Part shown: positions 8,289 to 17,365 of the stretch, piece by piece
Layout of the letters: every line of letters begins with the position of its first letter
Numbering within the stretch: the first letter of the stretch is position 1
Origin: Sinorhizobium meliloti
GTDB lineage: Bacteria > Pseudomonadota > Alphaproteobacteria > Rhizobiales > Rhizobiaceae
Assembly (NCBI RefSeq): GCF_017876815.1
Contig: NZ_JAGIOS010000003.1
Location: 570,001-602,000, forward strand
Reading direction: 5' to 3'
DNA: 32,000 nt
Position numbers and translations under genes: made by a program
The notes under the pieces: model-generated
What the model was told of the DNA's origin: nothing
The model's database searches: none
What the model saw: only the letters and a program-made list of their open reading frames with translations

Positions 8289-9026
8289 ATGACCCATTCC
8301 ACGCTGCCGCCTCAGCCATTTGCAATCCTTGCAATGCCAAGGACCGGTACACACTACTTGGAAGAATTGGTGAACGAGCATCCGAATGTATTGAGTAACG
8401 GTGAATTGCTCAATACGTACGACACGAACTGGCCTGATAAAGAACGCCTGCTACTCAGCGATCGAGAGCTTCTTGAGCGTGCCTTCTTGCGCTATCCCCC
8501 ACAAAGCGACAAGAAGGTGACCCATGTGGGTTGCAAGATCAACGAGCCTCAGTTTCAGGAGCGTCCGAGCTTTTTTGCCGAGCTGACCGCTTGGCCTGGA
8601 CTTAAGGTTATCCTTGTGATTCGCAGAAACACATTAGAGTCGCTAAGATCGTTTGTGCAGGCAAGGCAAACCCGCCAGTGGCTCAAGTTCAAGTCGGACA
8701 GTTCAGCTCCTCCACCTCCGGTGATGTTGCCATTCGCCACCTGCGAAGCCTACTTCAAAGCTGCCGACGATTTCCACGCTCGAGTGGTGAACGCCTTTGA
8801 TTCAAGCAGGATACGTTTAATCGAGTACGAGAGGCTCCTTCGCGATCCCCTCCCTTGCGTGGCAAAGGCCTTAGATTTCCTCGGCGCTCCTGCCCTACAG
8901 CTTGCTGATCGCGGTATTCTTCGGCGTCAAGAGACGCGTCCGTTGGACCAAACGGTACGGAACTTTCATGAGTTGCGGGTTCACTTCGCGAATGGACCTT
9001 ACGCGAGGTTCTTTGAGCTTGCGTAA
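8289..9026 (+). CDS. nodH: Nod factor sulfotransferase NodH (last codons replaced by the IS end)
   Basis: 245-aa ORF with a PAPS-binding-loop-like MPRTGTHYLEEL and its own nod box. The stop TAA (9024..9026) lies inside the left inverted repeat of the inserted IS66-family element. Confidence 0.92.
   Translation: MTHSTLPPQPFAILAMPRTGTHYLEELVNEHPNVLSNGELLNTYDTNWPDKERLLLSDRELLERAFLRYPPQSDKKVTHVGCKINEPQFQERPSFFAELTAWPGLKVILVIRRNTLESLRSFVQARQTRQWLKFKSDSSAPPPPVMLPFATCEAYFKAADDFHARVVNAFDSSRIRLIEYERLLRDPLPCVAKALDFLGAPALQLADRGILRRQETRPLDQTVRNFHELRVHFANGPYARFFELA
9015..9022. repeat. 8-bp target-site duplication GAGCTTGC (left copy) of the outer IS66-family element
   Basis: An identical octamer abuts the other IS end at 17358..17365. 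Confidence 0.9.
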
Positions 9027-9093
9027 GCGCTCATTTCCATGCGCGTTGACGCGGCCCGTTTGACCGGGGTCGCTGTGCGACGGCTGCATTGGA

Positions 9094-9306
9094 TCAGGCA
9101 GCGACTGCTTTGGTGAAGTTGAAGGGCAAGAGATCGGTGATGTCAGTATCTGTTGCGCGCTGTGGCAATTCACTAAGCACGTGGCGCAAGTAGGCCAAGG
9201 GCTCGACGCCGCAGGCGCGACAGGTCAGCATGATGCTGTAGACGACAGCACTGGCCCTGGCTCCGTCCACGGTATCGCTGAACAGCCAGGATTTTCTTCC
9301 AGTGGC
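9094..9306 (-). pseudogene. Outer IS66 transposase tnpC, C-terminal fragment
   Basis: (A)TGRKSWLFSDTVDGARASAVVYSIMLTCRACGVEPLAYLRHVLSELP matches the conserved IS66 C-terminus (GRKNWLF...AKLNG.DP..YL). It continues the frame that ends at 11891 (...IDNNLLERDIRIFA). Confidence 0.85.
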
Positions 9307-9341
9307 CATTGCAAGGTCATTCTACCCATATCGGCGAATAT

Positions 9342-9791
9342 GTGACCATTCATTACCCACATCATCCGCTTTTTGGGAAGCGCGTGAGACGTCAGGGCGT
9401 CGATCATCGCAAAGGCGGGGCGGTCGCGCACATCGAGACGACGCCCGGTAATGTCATTGTCATTCCGACGTGGATGCTGGATCCGATTGCCTGTGCGGGC
9501 ATGGAGATTGGCGAGCCCCGTGCTTCCCTTGAAGCGCTCATTGAACTCGCCAGTCTATTGACCCCTCAAGGTGAGAGGGCACCCTCGTCAACTGCCAAAG
9601 CAGTTGACGAGGAGGTTCCAGATGAAACTGCCAACGCCAATTCCACCCGAGGGTCCGCGCCAGATGATCATGGCGTTCGACTCGGTGAAGACGCGTGGGA
9701 TGAGCCCGCGCCAAAGGGAAGCCGCACTGATGGCATTGGCCATGTTGTTGATGGAGGCGGCCTGTGTAGCGGAGAAGGAGGCGCCGCATGA
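9342..9791 (+). CDS. Hypothetical small protein (HYPHHPLFGKR motif), first gene of the recombinase element
   Basis: The ORF is in frame with track ORF 9309..9791, whose TTG start lies 3 nt inside the element end, so GTG 9342 is a more plausible start. The N-terminal ~95 aa look protein-like (VTIHYPHHPLFGKRV...VIVIPTWMLDP...LEALIELASLL). The stop overlaps the recombinase start as ATGA. The C-terminal half is low-complexity and overlaps an alternative ORF. Confidence 0.4.
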   Translation: MTIHYPHHPLFGKRVRRQGVDHRKGGAVAHIETTPGNVIVIPTWMLDPIACAGMEIGEPRASLEALIELASLLTPQGERAPSSTAKAVDEEVPDETANANSTRGSAPDDHGVRLGEDAWDEPAPKGSRTDGIGHVVDGGGLCSGEGGAA

Positions 9792-9801
9792 ACGCGTTTA
9801 G
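9622..9801 (+). CDS. Alternative small ORF (59 aa) upstream of the recombinase
   Basis: ATG preceded by GAGGAGG at -13..-7. The product is MKLPTPIPPEGPRQMIMAFDSVKTRGMSPRQREAALMALAMLLMEAA... It overlaps ORF 9342..9791 in another frame, so only one of the two is likely to be real in this stretch. Confidence 0.3.
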   Translation: MKLPTPIPPEGPRQMIMAFDSVKTRGMSPRQREAALMALAMLLMEAACVAEKEAPHERV

Positions 9802-11863
9802 CCCTCTGCCGCCAGCGCTTCTGAAGCGTAAAGCCGTCGTCTATGTGCGACAATCGAGCCAAAGCCAGGTCATGCAAAATCTCGAGAGCCAACGGCGCCA
9901 ATACGATCTTGTGGATGCTGCGCGCCAGCACGGTTTCCGACGGGTCGAGGTGATTGATGATGACCTCGGATTGTCGGCGAGCGGCGCGGTCGCCCGTCCG
10001 GGGTTCGAACGTCTTGTCGCCTGGCTCTGCGCCGGAGACGTCGGCGCCGTTTTGTGTTTCGATGCTTCGCGTCTCGCCCGAAACGGGCGTGACTGGCATC
10101 ATTTGCTCGAACTTTGCGGCCTCGTGGACGCCCGCGTCATCGACCAGGACGGCGTCTATAATCCGTGCTCTCCTAATGATCGTTTGCTTTTGGGCATGAA
10201 GGGCACGATCAGCGAGTTCGAGCTTGGCATTATTCGCGCGCGCATGCTCGACGCTGCGCGTGCCAAGGCCAGACGCGGAGAGCTGCGCATCAGCGTTCCT
10301 ATCGGTTATATCTGGTACCGCGATGCGGGCCTTGGTTTCGATCCGGATCTGCGCGTGCAGGAAGCCGTCCGTCTGATCTTCAGCCGGTTTCGAGAGCTGA
10401 GAAGCGGTCGCCAGGTACTGTTGTCGCTGACGGAAGACAAGCTTTGCTTCCCACGTCCGACGGACGGACGCAACACGACGACTTTCGACTGGACACCGAT
10501 CCGATATCGCAATGTCATCTCGGTGCTAAAGAATCCGTTTTACGCTGGCGTTTATGCTTACGGCAAAAGCGAGAAGCGCACCGAGATTATCGATGGCCGC
10601 GCCCGCAAGACCTATGGCCATGGCAAACCGAAGGAGGAGTGGGAAGTTTTTCTCAAAGATCACCACGACGGTTATATCGAATGGGACGAATATGAACGCA
10701 ACCAGGCGCTGCTCGCCGCCAACGCCTATGGGCAAAAGGGCGGTGCAAAATCGGGCCGCGGTGGGCGTGCGCTGCTTTCTGGGCTCCTTTCCTGCGGTCG
10801 TTGCGGGCGGCGCCTGTGCGTCGCCTATACCGGCAAAACGCCACGTCCGGTTTACCGCTGCGAACGCCCCAATTTGATGTTAGGACTCAATCGATGTCTT
10901 GGCTTCGGCGGCCCGCGAATTGACAAAGCGGTTGCCGCGGAGCTTCTGCGCGTAGTCCAGCCGATGGCGATAGAGGCGGCGATGCAAGCTGAACACATGC
11001 AGTCTGAGGCGCGAGCTGAACGCCGCCGCGCCGCTGAACTCGACCTGCAGAAGGCGCAATATGAAGCTGCGCTCGCAGAACGACGCTACGCCGCCTGCGA
11101 TCCCGACAATTGCCTGATCGCGGCAACGCTGGAGAAGAACTGGGAGGTCGCTTTAAAACGCCTGGAGGCCTGCAAGACACGCCTTGACGCCGAACAGCTC
11201 CCGGATACCCCGGCAAAGCTGCCTGATTTAGATGGCTTGGCGGAAGATCTGCAGGCCGCCTGGAATGCGCCGGGCGTCAGCACGCGGGCGCGGCAGCGCC
11301 TCGCGCGGGCGCTGATCAAGGACATCATCGCTGATGTCGACGAAGAAGCGCGCGACGTCGTCCTGACAATCCATTGGCAGGGTGGTCAGCACTCGCAACT
11401 GCGCGTCAGAAAGCCCAAGACCGGCGAACATGGTTGCAATACGTCCGAAGACGCTCTTGAGGTCATGCGTTCCATGGCTGGAAGATGGAGCGACAGCGAT
11501 ATCGCAGCCACTCTCAATCGCATGGGCATACGCACAGGCTTTGGCCACACCTGGACGGCTCACCGCGTCTCTTCGATCCGCCGTGTCAACGATATTCACG
11601 CATACTTTTCTGCCGAAAAGAGCGGCAAATGGCTGACGATGACGGAGGCGGCCACCAAACTCGGCGTGACAAACCACGTCATCCGCAACCTGATCAAGGC
11701 AAAAATCCTGCCGGCCGAACAAGTCGTGCCCAGAGCGCCTTATCAGATTAAAGCCGTTGATATCGAACGCGAAGATATCATTGAAGCGATTAACAATAGA
11801 CGACGGAAACGCCCATATCGCGACCCTCGGCAAATCGCCCTTCCAATAAATTCAATTACTTAG
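9788..11863 (+). CDS. Large serine recombinase (resolvase/invertase catalytic domain + recombinase domain + zinc ribbon + coiled coil + C-terminal HTH)
   Basis: 691 aa. Catalytic-serine motif VVYVRQSSQSQ...Q and DASRLARN. The recombinase domain contains NPFYAGVYAYG. Zinc ribbon: CGRCGRRL...YRC. A coiled-coil segment follows. The C-terminal part has an MerR/excisionase-like HTH (LTMTEAATKLGVTNHVIRNLIK). GGAGAAGGAGG lies upstream of the ATG. Confidence 0.9.
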   Translation: MNAFSPLPPALLKRKAVVYVRQSSQSQVMQNLESQRRQYDLVDAARQHGFRRVEVIDDDLGLSASGAVARPGFERLVAWLCAGDVGAVLCFDASRLARNGRDWHHLLELCGLVDARVIDQDGVYNPCSPNDRLLLGMKGTISEFELGIIRARMLDAARAKARRGELRISVPIGYIWYRDAGLGFDPDLRVQEAVRLIFSRFRELRSGRQVLLSLTEDKLCFPRPTDGRNTTTFDWTPIRYRNVISVLKNPFYAGVYAYGKSEKRTEIIDGRARKTYGHGKPKEEWEVFLKDHHDGYIEWDEYERNQALLAANAYGQKGGAKSGRGGRALLSGLLSCGRCGRRLCVAYTGKTPRPVYRCERPNLMLGLNRCLGFGGPRIDKAVAAELLRVVQPMAIEAAMQAEHMQSEARAERRRAAELDLQKAQYEAALAERRYAACDPDNCLIAATLEKNWEVALKRLEACKTRLDAEQLPDTPAKLPDLDGLAEDLQAAWNAPGVSTRARQRLARALIKDIIADVDEEARDVVLTIHWQGGQHSQLRVRKPKTGEHGCNTSEDALEVMRSMAGRWSDSDIAATLNRMGIRTGFGHTWTAHRVSSIRRVNDIHAYFSAEKSGKWLTMTEAATKLGVTNHVIRNLIKAKILPAEQVVPRAPYQIKAVDIEREDIIEAINNRRRKRPYRDPRQIALPINSIT

Positions 11864-11890
11864 AAAGGGGGTGCATAATGACTCATGTCC

Positions 11891-12254
11891 GGCAAAAATC
11901 CTGATATCGCGTTCGAGAAGGTTGTTGTCGATCGACATCCTGCCGTCTTCGGTGTAGCGCGTCAGGTATTCCCACTGGTTCAGGGTGTAGGATACGGCGT
12001 CACCGATCTTGCTATCGGGCAAGACCTTCGGCGCGATGTCATCGAGCCATGCTTGAGAGCGATCAGGATGGGGACGCTGTGTTGCTGGCGGAAACGGCGG
12101 ATGCAGTCGGCTTGCGTTTCGCCAACTTCCGGCTTTTCGTTCTTGGCTTGGCTTTCAATCCGGTAGAGCTGCTCGAAGAACTTCAGCGCCTGCTCCGGCG
12201 GTCCGCCGCCTTTCTTCCTTGTCTTCAGAGCATCGATGAAGCGACGCCTCGAAT
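11891..12254 (-). pseudogene. Outer IS66 transposase tnpC, middle fragment (with internal frameshift near 12050)
   Basis: SRRRFIDALK...ALKFFEQLYRIESQAK...RRFRQQHSVPILIALK, then a frameshift, then AWLDDIAPKVLPDSKIGDAVSYTLNQWEYLTRYTEDGRMSIDNNLLERDIRIFA. The fragment is bounded by the two nested insertions. Confidence 0.85.
12247..12254. repeat. 8-bp target-site duplication CCTCGAAT (left copy) of the inner IS66-family element
   Basis: An identical octamer lies at 15404..15411, directly outside the opposite inverted repeat. Confidence 0.9.
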
Positions 12255-12315
12255 GTGAGCGCGACGAGCATCCCACGGCTTTCGTCTGTTGACGGAGGAG
12301 GAGCCGTCCGCTGTT

Positions 12316-12879
12316 TTAGAACTTCTGCTTTGCGCGCTTTGGCATGAAGTAGCTTCGGATATTGACGAGCGCCTCGGCGACGGCAGCAGCATCCTTGTGG
12401 GTAGCTGGTCCTTTTGTCTCGCTGAGCTTGCGGATTGGCGCAATGATGTCGCCAGTGACGGCATGACCGCGAACGACGGGCCGCCACAGCTTCGGCGCGA
12501 ACCCGGTTCCCATCAGAAAGCAGACGTCCCAGTCCATGGCATCAAAGGTCTGATCATCGATCCTGGTGAACCTGGGCCGGTGGTCTTTCGGCGTTTCGGC
12601 GAGGCTCGCCGAGATGCGGTTGTATTCCGCAACGATGGTCTGCACGGCCCGATGCTCGGTTGTTTCCATTGGCAGGTTCAGGGCCTCCGGGCCGGTCAGC
12701 TCCGGGATCCATTGACGTGGGTCGATAAACTTCGGGCCGATGATGAGAGCCGTGAGATAGCCATCGAGACCGCTCATTGACCAGATTGGCGATGCCGGAC
12801 GACGTGCCCTGATGAAGGCTTCGAACGCCTCGTCATCGAGCTTCGGTCGTACCGTCGTCCCTTGGCTGTTCTGTGTCAT
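12316..12879 (-). CDS. UPF0149/YecA-like family protein, fourth ORF of the inner IS66 element
   Basis: The ATG at 12879 overlaps the tnpC stop as ATGA. The product MTQNSQGTT...LDGYLTALIIGPKFIDPRQWIPEL...DWDVCFLMGTGF resembles the UPF0149 family; this assignment is from memory and is not verified. Confidence 0.6.
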   Translation of the reverse strand: MTQNSQGTTVRPKLDDEAFEAFIRARRPASPIWSMSGLDGYLTALIIGPKFIDPRQWIPELTGPEALNLPMETTEHRAVQTIVAEYNRISASLAETPKDHRPRFTRIDDQTFDAMDWDVCFLMGTGFAPKLWRPVVRGHAVTGDIIAPIRKLSETKGPATHKDAAAVAEALVNIRSYFMPKRAKQKF

Positions 12880-14450
12880 GCCGCCCGTCGCTCCTGATCT
12901 GCAATGTCCTCGCGTTCGGCCTTCCAAGCCCACGGCAATAGGCTTTCCATCCGGTTGGCTTTCACTTTGCCGGAGATGATGCGTTCCAGCACATCGGCAA
13001 GCCAGACTTCAGGATCCACGCCGTTAAGCTTCGCCGTGTTGATCAGTGATGCGAGCACAGCGAAAGTCTCTCCGCCGCGCGCACTGCCCACGAACAAGGA
13101 ATTCTTCCTCGTCAGGGCCACCGATTTCATCGAACGCTCGACCACATTGGAGTCTACTTCGATCCGGCCATCCTCTAGGAAGGCTGCCAGTCCGTTCCAG
13201 TGGTTGAGCGTGTAGGTGACGGCCTTGCCAAGCGCCGATTTCGCCGACACCTCGTCGCTCAGTTCGGTGAGCTGGGCCTTCAGTTCGCTCATGATGGGCG
13301 CTGCCTCGCGACGCCGCACCCTCAGCCGGGTATCGGCACTTTCGCCTCGGATCTTCGCTTCGATGCGATAGATCTCGGCGATCCTGGCCAGGATCGACAG
13401 CGCCTCCGAGGAGCCGGTCAGCTTGACGACATCGACGAACTTGCGTCGTGCGTGAGCAAGGCAGAACGCCAGCCGCATGGGGGCGACATTGCTCTTCCCC
13501 CTGCGCTTGGCCAAGGTTTTATAGGCTTGATAGCCATCGACCTGAAGCACGCCGGCAAACGACGACAGTTGCCCCTCGACCTCGCGAGCGCTGCGGCTTT
13601 CGGCAAAAGTATAGGCCACCGCCGGCGGCGCGGGACCATTCCATGGCCGATCGTCGACCGCCTGCGCCCACAGTTGGCAAAGCTTGGTGCGTTTGCGCCT
13701 CGGATCGAGCCGCGGAAGCGGTGTCTCGTCACAGAACACCCTTGGCTGGGAGAGGATGAAGGCGGTAAGCGCATCGTAGAGAAGCTCGAGCCACCAGGCG
13801 ACCCGCGTCACCCAGGCGCCGAGCGTGCCGCGATCTATGACGACGCCGCAGGAGGCAAGCATCTGCGCCTGGCGATGCAGCGGCAAATGCCAGGCAAACT
13901 TCGAAACGGCGACATGGGCTGCAAACGCCGTGGTCACCATACCGCCGTCCATCACACGCGCCGGCGCGGGCGCTTGCACAACAACGCTTTCGCAGGCCCG
14001 GCATGCATAGCGCGGCCGGATCGTCCGCTTTACCCGGACAATTGCCGGCACGATATCGAGCGCCTCGCTGATATCCTCACCGATGCAATGCAGGTCGAAC
14101 GAACAGCAGGGGCAGACCTTGCTCTCCGGCTCGATGATCTCGTCATAACGGGGAAGGTGTTTGGGCAAGCGACCGATATTGCGCGACGGCGCTCGCCGAG
14201 CCTGTGACGCCTGGTCGACGATTGGCGCAACATCGTCATTGGCCGCCACCGGGATGTCACTGAGATCGCCGAGATCGAGCACCGCCTGCGTCGGATCGAT
14301 CGTCGTCATCTTCTCCGATTTCGGCCCAAACAGCTGGCCCTCGAGGAAGGCGACACGCGCTTTGAGGTCGGCATTCTCTGCATCGAGCGAGAGAATGATC
14401 CGGGTCAATTGCTTGGCATCCTGAGGCAAGGGATCGGGTCGAAGCGGCAT
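12876..14450 (-). CDS. tnpC: IS66-family transposase TnpC (inner element, apparently intact)
   Basis: The open frame runs 12876..14483, but the track start is a TTG, so I prefer ATG 14450 (MPLRPDPLPQD...). Conserved blocks: GPKSEK, LPRYDEIIEP, CPCC, RPRYACRACE, HLPLHRQ, CDETPLP, CLAHARRKF, VDSNVVERSMK..TRKNSLF, AKLNGVDPEVWL. Confidence 0.9.
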   Translation of the reverse strand: MPLRPDPLPQDAKQLTRIILSLDAENADLKARVAFLEGQLFGPKSEKMTTIDPTQAVLDLGDLSDIPVAANDDVAPIVDQASQARRAPSRNIGRLPKHLPRYDEIIEPESKVCPCCSFDLHCIGEDISEALDIVPAIVRVKRTIRPRYACRACESVVVQAPAPARVMDGGMVTTAFAAHVAVSKFAWHLPLHRQAQMLASCGVVIDRGTLGAWVTRVAWWLELLYDALTAFILSQPRVFCDETPLPRLDPRRKRTKLCQLWAQAVDDRPWNGPAPPAVAYTFAESRSAREVEGQLSSFAGVLQVDGYQAYKTLAKRRGKSNVAPMRLAFCLAHARRKFVDVVKLTGSSEALSILARIAEIYRIEAKIRGESADTRLRVRRREAAPIMSELKAQLTELSDEVSAKSALGKAVTYTLNHWNGLAAFLEDGRIEVDSNVVERSMKSVALTRKNSLFVGSARGGETFAVLASLINTAKLNGVDPEVWLADVLERIISGKVKANRMESLLPWAWKAEREDIADQERRAA

Positions 14451-14498
14451 GACAGACCCTACCACATGAGCCTGAATCTGCAAACAAATCCAATAGGA

Positions 14499-14855
14499 TC
14501 AGCCCGCTTTTGAAGGCCTCCTCACCGCGTTTCGTTTGACCCGCGTCCAGTCAATGCCGGCCAGCAAAAGCGAGAACTCTTGGCTACTCATCTGCATCGC
14601 GCCATCGCGGATCGGTGGCCAAACGAACTTGCCCGCCTCCAGCCATTTCGTCGCCAGGATCATGCCTGACCCGTCCCAGTAAATACAGCGCAGGCGATCG
14701 CAACGCTTGGCGCGGAACACGAACACGTCGCCACAATAAGGATCAGCCGCAAGCGCTGACGCCACCAATGCCACCAGACCATTCATGCCGCGCCGGAAGT
14801 CGACAGGCTGCGTCGCCACCATGATCTTTACGCCACTCGGCGAAAGACCGATCAC
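14499..14855 (-). CDS. tnpB: IS66 Orf2 (TnpB) of the inner element
   Basis: 118 aa: MIGLSPSGVKIMVATQPVDFRRGMNGL...FVFRAKRCDRLRCIYWDGSGM, typical of IS66 Orf2. The GTG start overlaps the tnpA stop (GTGA). Confidence 0.88.
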   Translation of the reverse strand: MIGLSPSGVKIMVATQPVDFRRGMNGLVALVASALAADPYCGDVFVFRAKRCDRLRCIYWDGSGMILATKWLEAGKFVWPPIRDGAMQMSSQEFSLLLAGIDWTRVKRNAVRRPSKAG

Positions 14856-15322
14856 CGGCGACCTCGCAACGCCGCTACTACCGCTTGCGCCAACTCGGGC
14901 GCCACCGAGCCGATCACGGTCAGGCGCGCGCCGGCAATCTCAATCTCAATTCGACCGGAGGCACCGGAAGCGATATCCGACGACGCGCTCTGGTGAAGCG
15001 TTCGTTCTCCAACCACTGTCACCGGCACGAACATCGCCTGCTGTGCGCAGGCTTGCTCGGATCGTCGAGAGGTCAGCCCGGCTTCGCGGCGCCAGACAGT
15101 CAGCAGCCCGCGATTGACGCCCCAGCGCCGGGCAACAGCCGAGATGTTCACTCCGGGTTCAGCGCTCTCCGCAAGGATCCGCGCCTTCTCCTCGTCGGTC
15201 CAATTCCGCCGCTGGCGTCGCCCGGTGATCAGCTCGATCCGCCGGTAGGCTCCATCATGCCTAGCTTCATCCATGGCTTCATCCATGACTCCAAGCATGG
15301 CACCAGCGCGATCTCCAACCAT
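14852..15322 (-). CDS. tnpA: IS66 Orf1 (TnpA) of the inner element, start uncertain
   Basis: RRNWTDEEKARILAESAEPGVNISAVARRWGVNRGLLTVWRRE is the typical IS66 Orf1 HTH region. Candidate ATG starts lie at 15322, 15298, 15286 and 15274. The track ORF starts with TTG at 15367. Confidence 0.8.
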   Translation of the reverse strand: MVGDRAGAMLGVMDEAMDEARHDGAYRRIELITGRRQRRNWTDEEKARILAESAEPGVNISAVARRWGVNRGLLTVWRREAGLTSRRSEQACAQQAMFVPVTVVGERTLHQSASSDIASGASGRIEIEIAGARLTVIGSVAPELAQAVVAALRGRR

Positions 15323-15403
15323 CCCGTTCCACTCCTGTCGATGACGGAGCTTATCTCGCGGTCTCAATCAGCAAAGGAAAGGTGGGCTGTTCGTAGCGCT
15401 CAC

Positions 15404-15411
15404 CCTCGAAT
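15404..15411. repeat. 8-bp target-site duplication CCTCGAAT (right copy) of the inner IS66-family element
   Basis: See 12247..12254. Confidence 0.9.
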
Positions 15412-16428
15412 GGGCCATACACCCAATATGGGTCGCTCCTGCCAGAGTGCGCCAGGCGGTGTAACCATCGCTCATCAATATGCCGCGGTAGTCGCCGAGG
15501 AAGGCCTGCGGATAAATCTGGCCGCGGCCGGGTTGATAATCGAGCAGCACGATCGGCTCGCCGCTGTCTTCACCGCTCCTGTATGCCCACATGAAGGATA
15601 TGCTGGTGGCCTCCCTGTCCTTTTCCTTCAGCACCTGGACCGTTGTCTCGTCACCATGGATCAGCGGTTGTGAACGAAGCCGGAGCTTCAGCGCGTCATA
15701 GATGCGAGAGAGATGCCTCTCGCTCGAGCCGATCACCCAGTGACCCAAAGCACCGCGGCTGACGGGAACGCCGGCGCGCTCGAAGGCCTGGGCGAGACGG
15801 TAGAGCGGCGTGCCGTCGATGTATTTGTGGACCAGTGCAAATGCCAGCGTCGAGGCCGTGGCGATGCTGCCCGGCAAGGGCTGCGCGGGCATTGGCGCGA
15901 GAACGACAGGCGTGTTGATGCCGGTCCGGTCGCAATGGCGGCAGGCGTACTTGAACCGCACATTCTGCAGGACCTTGGCCTTCACCTCGATATGGAGCTG
16001 CTCGGTGACGGCCTCACCCATGCGATGCATCTGATGACGGCAGCAAGGGCAGGCCTTCTGGTCGTCGGCAAGGTCATACTCGACACGCTCGCGCGGCAGG
16101 TGTTCCGGCAGGGGCTTGCGGCCACGCTTCTTGCCCTCCGGTTTCTCGATCGTCGCAAAACCGGTTTCCGGCAGGTCGACGACCTCGCCATCTTCTCCGC
16201 TGGCGTCGTCTTCATTGGCAACCTGCTCGGCTTCATCGAAGAGCCGGTCCACATGCTTTTCGCTCTTCGGCGCAAAACGATGCAGCCGCGCCAGCTCCAA
16301 CTCTTCCTCGAGCTTGACCACGCGGGCGCTGAGCGCTTCTTTCTCGGCTTTCAGCGCGGCATTTCGGCAGCATTTGCCGCCAACTGCGCCATCAGTTCTG
16401 CAACGCTTGGTTCGCCGGATCGAGTCAT
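15404..16428 (-). pseudogene. Outer IS66 transposase tnpC, N-terminal fragment (frameshift near 16350-16375)
   Basis: ATG 16428 gives MTRSGEPSVAELMAQLAANAAE, which then hits a stop. The sequence continues in another frame as NAALKAEKEALSARVVKLEEELELARLHRFAPKSEKH...CPCCRHQMHRMGE...YACRHCD...HGDETTVQVL...GCMAHSR. It ends at the inner IS junction. Confidence 0.85.
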
Positions 16429-16482
16429 CGTAGTTTTGAATCTGAACCGCACCACCGCGTCAACCGCAGAAGTTCAGAGCCG

Positions 16483-16836
16483 TCAGCCGGCGATCTGATA
16501 TTGCCGCACAGGGTGGCGCACCATGGCGTCGATATCGATGCCGTCGAGAATCCAGTGAAGCTGCTCAGTCGAAAGCGTCACCACCGCCGTCTCCCGGCGT
16601 GGCCATCTGAACCGATCTTCGGTCAATCGCTTCAGGACCATCACAAAACCGGACCGATCGAAGAACAGGAGCTTCATCCGGTCACGACGGCGATTGCAGA
16701 ACGCAGAAACGGCTGGAGCAAACGGGTCGAGCTCCATCGTCTCCTGCACCAGGACCGCAAGGCTGTTGATGCCGGCGCGGAAGTCGATCGGTTCGCGGTG
16801 CAGGTAGACCTTGAGATCAGCGCCCAGTCTGAACAT
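16483..16836 (-). CDS. tnpB: IS66 Orf2 (TnpB) of the outer element
   Basis: MFRLGADLKVYLHREPIDFRAGINSLAVLVQE...FCNRRRDRMKLLFFDRSGF. I prefer ATG 16836 to the track TTG at 16851. Confidence 0.85.
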   Translation of the reverse strand: MFRLGADLKVYLHREPIDFRAGINSLAVLVQETMELDPFAPAVSAFCNRRRDRMKLLFFDRSGFVMVLKRLTEDRFRWPRRETAVVTLSTEQLHWILDGIDIDAMVRHPVRQYQIAG

Positions 16837-17275
16837 GGCCCAATGCTCCAATGACAGCCGTCAACGCATCCACATCCCTGCATTCCAGCGAAAGCTTCAC
16901 GCCGTTTGGCAGCAACGCGCTGATTTTGGATAAACCTGACGGATGAACCGGCTTCTCCAGTGATGCTCGTTGTTCTTCATCACACGTGACCGACATATCC
17001 AGCGAGCAGGTCCCGACAGGCAGGCTGCCATCTGCTGCCACGACCGGGATAAACGCCGATCGTGGAGATACCGCCAGGGGGCCAGACTCCCTGGCCTCCT
17101 TGACCCACTTGCGCAGTAGGTTGGCATTGATCCCATGCGTAAGCGCAAGGCCGGATATCGACACACCAGGTTCAAGGCAGGCCGCAACAAGCCGCGCCTT
17201 TGATCCTGGATCGTAGCGGCGTCGACCATCGCGCCCCACATGCCGCACACGCAGTTTCTGCTCTTCGTCACTCAT
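16817..17275 (-). CDS. tnpA: IS66 Orf1 (TnpA) of the outer element
   Basis: 152 aa: RRRYDPGSKARLVAACLEPGVSISGLALTHGINANLLRKWVKE, the HTH region typical of IS66 Orf1. The ATG lies 82 nt inside the right inverted repeat. Confidence 0.85.
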   Translation of the reverse strand: MSDEEQKLRVRHVGRDGRRRYDPGSKARLVAACLEPGVSISGLALTHGINANLLRKWVKEARESGPLAVSPRSAFIPVVAADGSLPVGTCSLDMSVTCDEEQRASLEKPVHPSGLSKISALLPNGVKLSLECRDVDALTAVIGALGHVQTGR

Positions 17276-17357
17276 ATTTGGTGTCCACCTATTTTAAGTG
17301 GACACTTCATGCGGCAGAGGCATCAACGAGAAAAGGCGCATGGAAATGAGCGCTTAC

Positions 17358-17365
17358 GAGCTTGC
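17358..17365. repeat. 8-bp target-site duplication GAGCTTGC (right copy) of the outer IS66-family element
   Basis: See 9015..9022. It is followed by TAACAACTGA, which continues the nodH frame as ...ELANN-stop. Confidence 0.9.

Follow-up and report, generated by a model that had tools for sequence, protein, structure and literature searches.

Serine-integrase elements, among them those of phiC31, Bxb1 and TP901-1 and the Streptococcus integrative and mobilizable elements found in genes of ICEs (integrative and conjugative elements), encode large serine recombinases (LSRs) with a Resolvase domain, a Recombinase domain, a zinc ribbon, and a coiled coil. They recombine attP with attB at a 2-bp core. 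Their attP is an imperfect dyad, their attB lies in a conserved gene, and integration leaves no target duplication. Other mobile DNA homes into repeated mobile elements. Tn21-type transposons receive IS4321 and IS5075 (IS1111 group) in their terminal repeats, RmInt1, a group II intron, homes into ISRm2011-2 of Sinorhizobium meliloti, and phiRv1, which also uses an LSR, homes into the REP13E12 repeat of Mycobacterium tuberculosis. Here, we analyze a 32,000-nt stretch of S. meliloti DNA (contig NZ_JAGIOS010000003.1, positions 570,001 to 602,000; hereafter the window), in which a small LSR-encoding element splits tnpC, the transposase gene of an insertion sequence (IS) of the IS66 family. Judged by its sequence, the element has the listed traits of serine-integrase elements and the life style of the homing elements, landing in a conserved sequence of another repeated mobile element. 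We consider it very probable that window positions 9307-11893 are an autonomous, cargo-less, IS-like LSR element of 2587 bp with circle-dependent expression that reinserts into IS66.

Uninterrupted copies of the target IS define the ends of the element. The outer, IS66-family IS (9023-17357, minus strand) was delimited by alignment to two intact copies, L099 and L100, which match window positions 9023-9306, 11891-12255, and 15404-17358 at 98.8-99.6% identity. L099 is the intact IS on pRM41A of S. meliloti Rm41, where it is annotated as an IS66-like transposase and TnpB. On the minus strand, the right flank of the element codes for ...IDNNLLERDIRIFA of TnpC and the left flank for TGRKSWLFSDTVDG...; the initial annotation of this DNA had correctly placed the break in the frame between ...IDNNLLERDIRIFA and TGRKSWLF.... 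With the element in place, the left junction is ...CTTCCAGTG-GC-CATTGCAAG... and the right junction is ...TCATGTCCG-GC-AAAAATCCTG.... The empty site, CTTCCAGTG-GC-AAAAATCCTG, is found intact and with a single GC in uninterrupted copies of the same IS, which read ...TTCTTCCAGTGGCAAAAATCCTGATATC... at this position; the restored tnpC site is CTTCCAGTGGCAAAAATCCTG. The target had been reconstructed beforehand as CAGGATTTT-CTTCCAGTGGCA-AAAATCCTG, with a check on uninterrupted copies of the outer IS proposed, and these copies, for example that on pRM41A of Rm41, match the prediction letter for letter. Empty sites are abundant, with 57 plasmid records covering at least 80% of the reconstructed site. 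Integration splits tnpC, and precise excision would restore it.

The recombination core is a dinucleotide, GC in the window. The element body, 9307-11891, lies between the attL core at 9305-9306 (the first two bases of a tnpC Ala codon, minus strand) and the attR core at 11892-11893. The excision unit, 9307-11893, is therefore 2587 bp, with one GC retained, and contains two small open reading frames (ORFs), ORF1 and ORF2, and the LSR gene. The initial annotation had instead proposed 9307-11890 (2584 bp) as the unit and GGC as a possible core. Excision of that interval leaves GGCGGC, with one surplus Ala codon, and neither GGC nor GG is a register common to attL and attR in other copies. We located the junctions of relatives by anchoring on conserved end motifs, with attL as B-XX-N9-(G/T)TCATTCTGCCCAT and attR as GTGCAnAATGA(C/A)-N9-XX-B', where B and B' are the attB arms. 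XX is GC at 69 of 87 attL junctions and 54 of 69 attR junctions. Where it is not GC, matched cores are seen at both junctions: GT/GT (L034), TT/TT (L042), AC/AC (L064 and L088), CA/CA (L081), and GG/GG (L096). A one-base shift in register abolishes this agreement between attL and attR, and only the 2-bp register is common to both junctions. Such a matched 2-bp core is the signature of a serine-recombinase crossover. There is no target duplication: attL and attR share just the dinucleotide at the center of a 9+2+9 arrangement.

The attB comprises about 60 bp of tnpC. Close to where the DDE domain ends on its C-terminal side, these code for N-x-x-E-R-x-(I/L)-R-x-x-A-x-x-R-K-N-x-L-F. On the minus strand, its left arm (B, 9275-9304) codes for ...TGRKSWLFS and its right arm (B', 11894-11923) for ...NLLERDIRIF. 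The family consensus is CCgGCGAAcAGCCAgttcTTtCtnCCgAgnGC for B plus core and GCnAtGgcgCGcAtgGCgCGCTCGgCgGcgTT for core plus B'. In translated targets, the core forms the first two bases of one codon, GC going with Ala and the variant cores with Thr, Lys, Val, or Cys. The crossover falls at about residue 461 of an intact ISRm TnpC, within PF03050 (residues 188-477) and 16 residues before the end of that domain. We take the Glu of the N-x-x-E-R motif to be the catalytic Glu of the DDE triad.

Joining the two ends of the element would create a symmetric attP. The left end (P' arm, 9307-9329, plus strand) consists of the 9-nt spacer CATTGCAAG followed by an inverted-repeat arm, GTCATTCTACCCAT, and is kept family-wide as N9-(G/T)TCATTCTGCCCAT at a constant distance from the core. 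The right end (P arm, 11864-11891, plus strand) combines a Shine-Dalgarno (SD) sequence, an inverted-repeat arm at 11869-11882, GGGTGCATAATGAC, and a 9-nt spacer, TCATGTCCG. Together they form a dyad with exact 9+2+9 spacing, GGGTGCATAATGAC-N9-GC-N9-GTCATTCTACCC. The initial annotation had recognized this dyad but had centered it on GGC rather than GC. Family members conserve the outer arms of the dyad, with GCAGAATGAC as consensus, the predicted attP is GTGCAnAATGAC-N9-GC-N9-GTCATTCTGCCC, and the junction predicted for the window element is ...AATGACTCATGTCCG-GC-CATTGCAAGGTCATTC.... The junction sequences show where the LSR would exchange strands, namely between the joined ends (attP) and the attB in tnpC at the 2-bp core.

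Recognition of the target as a dyad-symmetric site, suggested at the outset, is not supported. The 9-bp inverted repeat on which this suggestion was based (9287-9295 and 11895-11903) does exist, but its center lies 3-4 bp off the crossover, it is specific to this IS lineage, and it is absent from other IS66 targets. We therefore regard it as incidental. The subterminal CATTC..TACCCA repeat is present at 9346-9363, within coding sequence. Two further features were seen around the att sites. A 13-nt string, GGCAAAAATCCTG, occurs twice, at 11698-11710 in the winged-helix coding region of the recombinase gene and at 11891-11903 across the attR core and B'; an estimated 0.05 such repeats are expected by chance in this stretch. 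Most relatives also carry a 6-bp palindrome, CTGCCC-ATRTC-GGGCAG, just interior to the left arm and within the first ORF1 codons (e.g., L038, 3519-3545), of which the window equivalent at 9320-9336 is degenerate, CTACCCATATCGGCGAA.

Pfam domains bear out the annotation of the 691-aa ORF at 9788-11863 (plus strand) as a large serine recombinase. For the N-terminal, resolvase-type catalytic domain (PF00239), the score of 85 bits exceeds the cut-off of 23.3, and the recombinase domain PF07508 (63.2 bits) and the zinc ribbon PF13408 (29.1 bits) are also above their cut-offs. A coiled coil and a C-terminal extension of about 220 aa complete the protein. Y19, R21, Q22, and S23 are invariant among 12 family members, which gives the catalytic Ser its Y-x-R-x-S setting. 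Similarity to solved LSRs is distant (E of about 1e-4) and confined to the catalytic domain. In the C-terminal extension, AlphaFold2 (AF2) is confident only for an excisionase-like winged helix at residues 615-670 (predicted local distance difference test, pLDDT, 69-90), and a match to HTH_17 near the C-terminus, at 22.7 bits, stays under its cut-off.

The element has moved recently among IS66 copies in Sinorhizobium. Identical or near-identical LSRs are found in at least six different IS66-type tnpC sequences of S. meliloti and S. medicae, and an exact-protein lookup gave no record for the window LSR and ten genomic contexts for one cluster member (P0121). The target peptides are ERDIRIF-A-TGRKSWLF, ENAIRRP-A-MNRRNALF, ERAIRPQ-A/T-ITRKNSLF, ERAIRPQ-A-LNRKNALF, another ERAIRPQ-type target (L103), and ERALRPI-A-IGRKNW... 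The same element sequence thus sits in different targets, which is the basis for inferring recent mobility. Ten full-length copies were measured, and each is 2587 bp long with GC at both junctions, except that attR of L001 reads GT; the LSR is antisense to tnpC in all ten. Three copies are carried by pSmeSM11c of strain SM11 and three by GCA_028888155.1. Deleted or truncated copies are also common on Sinorhizobium plasmids. One of them, L004 (CP050513.1), has lost about 113 bp of the 3' end of the recombinase gene and kept both att ends. In the pSymB region of L001 (CP140948.1), several mobile elements (ISRm16, IS66, and an intron) are crowded together, with group II intron reverse transcriptase/maturase genes (positions 1-2171) about 2 kb from an element copy.

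Related elements are widespread among bacteria. A protein search with the LSR gave 7997 matches at E<=1e-10, the top 120 of which are all about 690 aa long and 70-100% identical; many lie on contigs of 2.2-3 kb. In species-representative genomes (one genome per species), we found at least 585 loci, and 80 of these were kept for analysis. The kept loci come from Alpha-, Beta-, and Gammaproteobacteria, together with some metagenome-assembled genomes labeled Acidobacteriota, Gemmatimonadota, Verrucomicrobia, and Planctomycetota. Relatives at 64-76% identity in 80 other species are 2575-2614 bp long and cut tnpC at the same Ala codon, with N..ER..R.. before it and ..RKN.LF after it. In tblastn searches with IS66 TnpC queries, 44 loci have the C-terminal part of TnpC (from about residue 455) next to the left end and its N-terminal part (up to about residue 456) next to the right end, and 19 further loci show the same break on the one side with sufficient flank. 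In 68 of 69 relatives, the element measures 2575-2614 bp, and cargo is therefore absent from the sampled members. The isolate contigs L028, L074, and L089 start or stop exactly at the core and are read as collapsed copies of a multicopy repeat. Other IS66-borne copies thus interrupt tnpC at the same codons and with the same end points, as had been anticipated. The empty site, the shared end points, and the constant length strongly support the initial proposal of a minimal, cargo-less LSR element that lands in a conserved codon block of IS66 tnpC.

Some lineages use targets other than IS66. The P0009/P0012 subgroup (L005-L015 and L019; 76% identity) cuts an unannotated gene of about 214 aa between ...SVTEALRDLA and RWLYRQLEAEYD...; the target peptide of the P0009 subgroup reads ...TEALRDLA before the cut and RWLYRQL... 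after it. The surroundings in this subgroup are ICE- or plasmid-like, with genes for RadC, DUF6878, DUF6915, antirestriction, AbiE, and VapC. Contig L009, which may be an assembly chimera, combines an IS66 half at one end of the element with the P0009-type target gene at the other.

The integrated element lacks a start codon of its own for ORF1. The ORF1 body (9307-9791, plus strand; 160 of 166 codons) runs from the extreme left end to the recombinase start codon, on which it ends in ATGA; the two small ORFs, one of them with this stop-start overlap, are present as first described. The first 95 or so residues of ORF1 are conserved (consensus HSAHVGQEVEVHYRWHPLFGRRV...AAWMLDP..CAGMELGEPRVS..AL.EL), and its codon-position entropies of 0.94/0.77/1.57 make the third position the most variable. 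This coding signature begins by about codon 6, only some codons in from the left end. When 1.84 billion representatives were searched without a profile, 943 ORF1-homologous clusters emerged at E<=0.001. At 37 of the 78 distinct left junctions, the frame contains no ATG, GTG, or TTG up to the upstream stop. At the other 41, a start lies somewhere upstream, fortuitously and at variable distance. In most clades, the first 30 or so codons of ORF1 do not include a start codon.

Joined ends would supply ORF1 with a start codon. ORF1 is a junction-spanning frame: once the ends join, the right-end AATGA(C/A) contributes an ATG (11878-11880, within the right inverted-repeat arm) that precedes the HSAH codons by exactly 24 nt (8 codons). 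An SD, AAAGGGGG (11864-11871), precedes this ATG and overlaps the recombinase stop codon. Of 57 distinct right ends, 52 have an SD-like match of at least 4 nt ahead of the ATG, ten of them with the full AGGAGG. The joined-end ORF1 is 164-179 aa long, and the frame is kept across the junction in nearly all members. A fossil junction between right and left ends, with the 9+2+9 spacing, is present in L113 (GCA_000473425.1) and in the S. meliloti plasmid NZ_CP085526.1. It consists of the decayed 3' end of a recombinase gene, then ...GGGGTGCATAATGAC-TCATGTCCA-GC-AATTGCTAG-GTCATTCTGCCCC..., then the start of ORF1, and the gene caller begins this ORF1 at the predicted ATG (MTHVQQLLGHS...). The fossil shows that, in a circle or in a tandem copy, a right and a left end were once united at the predicted core.

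The ribosome-binding site of ORF2 is predicted to be held in a covarying hairpin. ORF2 (9622-9801, plus strand) encodes 59 aa with an acidic tail, overlaps the start of the LSR gene by 14 nt, and is gene-called in distant loci; its conserved motif is RQLxLxFDxxxLxGLSxxERxxVxxxLAxLLMEAAG..EE..DDER. The hairpin (repeat I13; 9583-9612, plus strand) has 13-bp arms, and its 3' arm contains the ORF2 SD. For the 45 nt upstream of the ORF2 ATG, the mean minimum free energy z-score is -2.2 in 57 relatives, with z < -1.5 in 41. De novo RNAalifold on the ORF2 leader returned no consensus structure, and the named hairpin was then tested by pair counting. In an ungapped alignment of 49 sequences, its 10-pair helix is paired in 73.9% of cells, compared with 31-45% in slid controls. 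The helix has 62 compensatory cells, and the observed value was reached in 0 of 500 shuffles.

The small ORFs had initially been put forward as candidate directionality factors. Searches of Pfam, NCBIfam, and PDB sequences with ORF1 and ORF2 gave nothing meaningful. The AF2 model of ORF1 is weak (pLDDT 61), and its Foldseek matches are generic SH3/Tudor/KOW-like barrels only, at E > 0.1. The evidence points more toward a circle-dependent expression circuit than toward directionality factors.

In the mechanism that we propose, with moderate confidence, the LSR would excise the element as a non-replicating circle. End joining would bring the right-end SD and ATG in frame with ORF1 at the left end, so that ORF1 would be translated from the circle only. 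Ribosomes on ORF1 would melt the ORF2 hairpin and end on the recombinase start codon. The resulting circle-specific burst of ORF1, ORF2, and LSR would drive reinsertion into another copy of IS66. IS66 copies, being numerous and often plasmid-borne, would offer neutral landing sites and a path into new hosts, and insertion into them may come without cost to the host. The target is among the most conserved DNA of a multicopy, often plasmid-borne element, and new hosts are therefore likely to have sites.

Other readings of the locus were weighed against this one. LSRs usually integrate large elements, and the P0009 subgroup adjoins ICE-type genes (RadC, antirestriction, AbiE, and VapC); the LSR region might thus be a piece of a larger element (prophage, ICE, or genomic island) abutting IS66 debris. 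However, a single tnpC gene, split in two, flanks the same 2587-bp unit, paralogues have the empty site intact, length is constant across 68 relatives, and the P0009 ends enclose only about 2.58 kb, with the ICE genes beyond them. We consider an origin as a fragment extremely improbable, in line with the initial view of the element. The element could also be a domesticated, reversible IS66 switch, kept for silencing and restoring tnpC in the manner of the elements that recombinases excise from nif genes of cyanobacteria, rather than a selfish transposable element. Excision at the 2-bp core would restore tnpC exactly, insertion is always in the same codon and mostly in one orientation, and the best NCBIfam match of the LSR, although sub-threshold, is the XisF excision recombinase. 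Against such a role, identical elements occupy six unrelated IS66 subfamilies of one species, near-identical recombinases across phyla indicate horizontal spread independent of any single IS lineage, some lineages target non-IS66 genes, and most IS66 copies are empty, as the plasmid records illustrate. Domestication therefore seems improbable to us.

The reading of ORF1 faces a stronger competitor. ORF1 may be translated from an internal or flanking start in the integrated element, with the right-end ATG a by-product of the inverted repeat and no circle-specific expression. AATGAC mirrors GTCATT, the constant 9+2+9 geometry would preserve the frame automatically, and an upstream ATG, GTG, or TTG is available at the 41 junctions mentioned above. 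Conservation of the right-end ATG, sitting as it does in AATGAC/GTCATT, could accordingly reflect binding of the recombinase. Furthermore, gene callers sometimes start ORF1 of the Sinorhizobium clade at an in-frame GTG, which lies 12 codons into the frame. Still, the remaining 37 junctions offer no in-frame start at all, most clades have none in the first 30 or so codons even though the coding signature begins by about codon 6, and the left arm has no mirror image of the purine-rich SD found ahead of the ATG in 52 of 57 right ends. We regard translation from the integrated element as unlikely overall, though a serious possibility.

Several further observations weigh against an autonomous element with circle-dependent expression. 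The LSR gene has a strong SD of its own, GGAGAAGGAGG (9771-9781), and does not require coupling to ORF1. A promoter scan of the operon found nothing convincing, its two hits pointing outward at the left end in a number close to the shuffle expectation. No directionality factor was identified. No circular junction of an intact element was found, and a scan of metagenome contigs for the attP pattern gave one hit, which we judged to be chance. This hit, on a 2.2-kb contig (L102, JGI Ga0172363_10088073; reverse complement, 769-812), is an attP-like dyad, GGGCAGAATGA-N10-GC-N10-TCATTCCGCC; tblastn found recombinase homology nowhere on the contig, and the hit may be a chance match or the site of a related element. 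Among plasmid records, the IS beside nodH is known only from SM11 and RU11/001, occupied in both, and does not appear without the element; the empty site is therefore known from paralogous IS copies only.

The orientation of the element in its target adds one more difficulty. In characterized serine integrases, polarity is determined by the asymmetric core alone, and with a palindromic GC core both orientations should be equally frequent. Yet the LSR is antisense to tnpC at about 63 flank-sides, as against about 8 that are opposite or hybrid. The opposite or hybrid IS66 cases (L093, L097, L023, L024, L040, and L046) all have a GC core, and the P0009 subgroup occurs in both orientations (L015 and L019 versus L005-L008 and L010). 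Selection against the orientation in which IS66 transcription enters ORF2 and the recombinase gene is a possible cause of the bias; an intrinsic orientation bias is the alternative. In L046 (the complete chromosome of Labrys okinawensis), L023, and L040, the C-terminal half of tnpC is found on both sides of the element, the right one inverted. Such double C-terminal halves therefore reflect opposite-orientation insertions or recombinase-mediated inversions, and not homologous recombination between same-type insertions.

With all these points considered, we maintain the reading as an autonomous, cargo-less element. A broader joint claim is more tentative, and we put its chance at somewhat below even. 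It is that of a multi-phylum family of obligate IS66 parasites that home into the tnpC codons directly behind the N-x-x-E-R motif, with cores retuned by lineage to the residue (Ala, Thr, Val, Lys, or Cys) found in different IS66 subfamilies, an operon that registers the integrated or free state and is expressed only from the circle, and, as a by-effect, a reversible off-switch for IS66.

The window belongs to the symbiosis megaplasmid of S. meliloti and is 100% identical to pSmeSM11c of SM11 and pSymA of RU11/001; the matching locus (L105) is CP001831.1, at about 1,003,645-1,008,720. Directly upstream are nodE, nodF, and a nodH-type sulfotransferase gene. Besides the recombinase element, the outer IS holds a second nested insertion, another IS66-family IS at 12256-15403. 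An early reading of the outer tnpC as truncated was ruled out, this second IS being what interrupts the gene. The nested IS has its own tnpA (14852-15367), tnpB (14499-14855), and tnpC (12876-14483), and the target motif in its tnpC (ERSMKSVALTRKNSLF) is unoccupied by the LSR element. An ORF of 205 aa at 12316-12933 (UPF0149, PF03695) overlaps the 3' end of that tnpC and may be a passenger gene.

We provisionally regard the LSR elements of IS66 as a family without prior description. No literature on LSR elements in IS66 was found in searchable full text, a coverage outside which ISfinder and subscription journals fall. In the largest LSR survey, that of Durrant et al. 2022, we found no mention of LSR elements in IS66 in the main text or supplements. 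As in the initial annotation, the element could be assigned to no named family, and no paper on it was found in the searchable literature. It is not a passenger gene of IS66, since it splits tnpC, occurs in six IS66 lineages, and is lacking from intact IS copies. By general standards it qualifies as an insertion sequence, being shorter than about 3 kb (2587 bp), with three ORFs lacking matches to accessory functions and with multiple copies per genome. To our knowledge, the insertion-sequence catalogue contains no LSR family. If confirmed, a cargo-less and highly site-specific LSR class with at least 585 loci and thousands of protein clusters would join it.

The family would be a clear and abundant case of transposon-on-transposon parasitism, and the activity of IS66, both on symbiosis plasmids and in other locations, may be limited or modulated by it. 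For annotation, it would account for many genes labeled as recombinase family protein, for split IS66 pseudogenes, and for recombinase contigs of 2.2-3 kb. It is also a candidate tool: a natural target of about 60 bp, core variants, and a natural series of attB and attP sites could serve studies of LSR specificity and polarity. The split arrangement of ORF1 offers a testable case of integration-state-dependent expression.

The element differs from each of the known systems that it resembles. Unlike the serine-integrase elements, it is cargo-less and only 2.6 kb long, its attB lies in another transposable element and is hence multicopy, its GC core is palindromic, and the C-terminal extension of its LSR, about 220 aa long, includes an excisionase-like winged helix. 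IS607 is likewise small, confined to mobility functions, and without target duplication, and it too uses a serine recombinase. However, the IS607 recombinase is small (about 200 aa), with an N-terminal MerR-like helix-turn-helix and little specificity, whereas the 691-aa protein described here has an N-terminal catalytic domain. It scores 16.9 bits against a cut-off of 110 with the IS607 model (NF033518), which excludes membership in IS607 and agrees with the initial distinction between the two.

The homing elements and the cyanobacterial excision elements resemble the LSR element in where they insert. IS4321/IS5075 and RmInt1 use a DEDD transposase or a reverse transcriptase, and their targets, like that of phiRv1, differ from IS66 tnpC. 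We know of none among IS4321/IS5075, RmInt1, and phiRv1 that combines an LSR, an IS66 tnpC target, and minimal size. The heterocyst excision elements of cyanobacteria (XisF, fdxN) are also serine recombinase elements inside a gene that precise excision restores. Those elements are single-copy, vertically inherited, and developmental; the present family is multicopy, occurs in several phyla, and resides in a transposase gene.

Tn4451/Tn4453 (TnpX) and Tn5397 (TndX) share the use of an LSR as transposase, and they form an excised, non-replicating circle, which we predict for this element as well. Tn4451-type elements carry cargo, have a GA core, and accept relaxed targets, whereas this element is cargo-less, has a GC core, and is directed to about 60 bp of one gene motif. 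In IS911-type elements, joined ends activate junction promoters. In Tn4451, studied by Lyras and Rood, the circle junction reportedly creates an expression signal for the recombinase gene tnpX. The junction of the IS66-borne element seems to assemble a translation start, rather than a promoter, for an ORF upstream of its recombinase gene.

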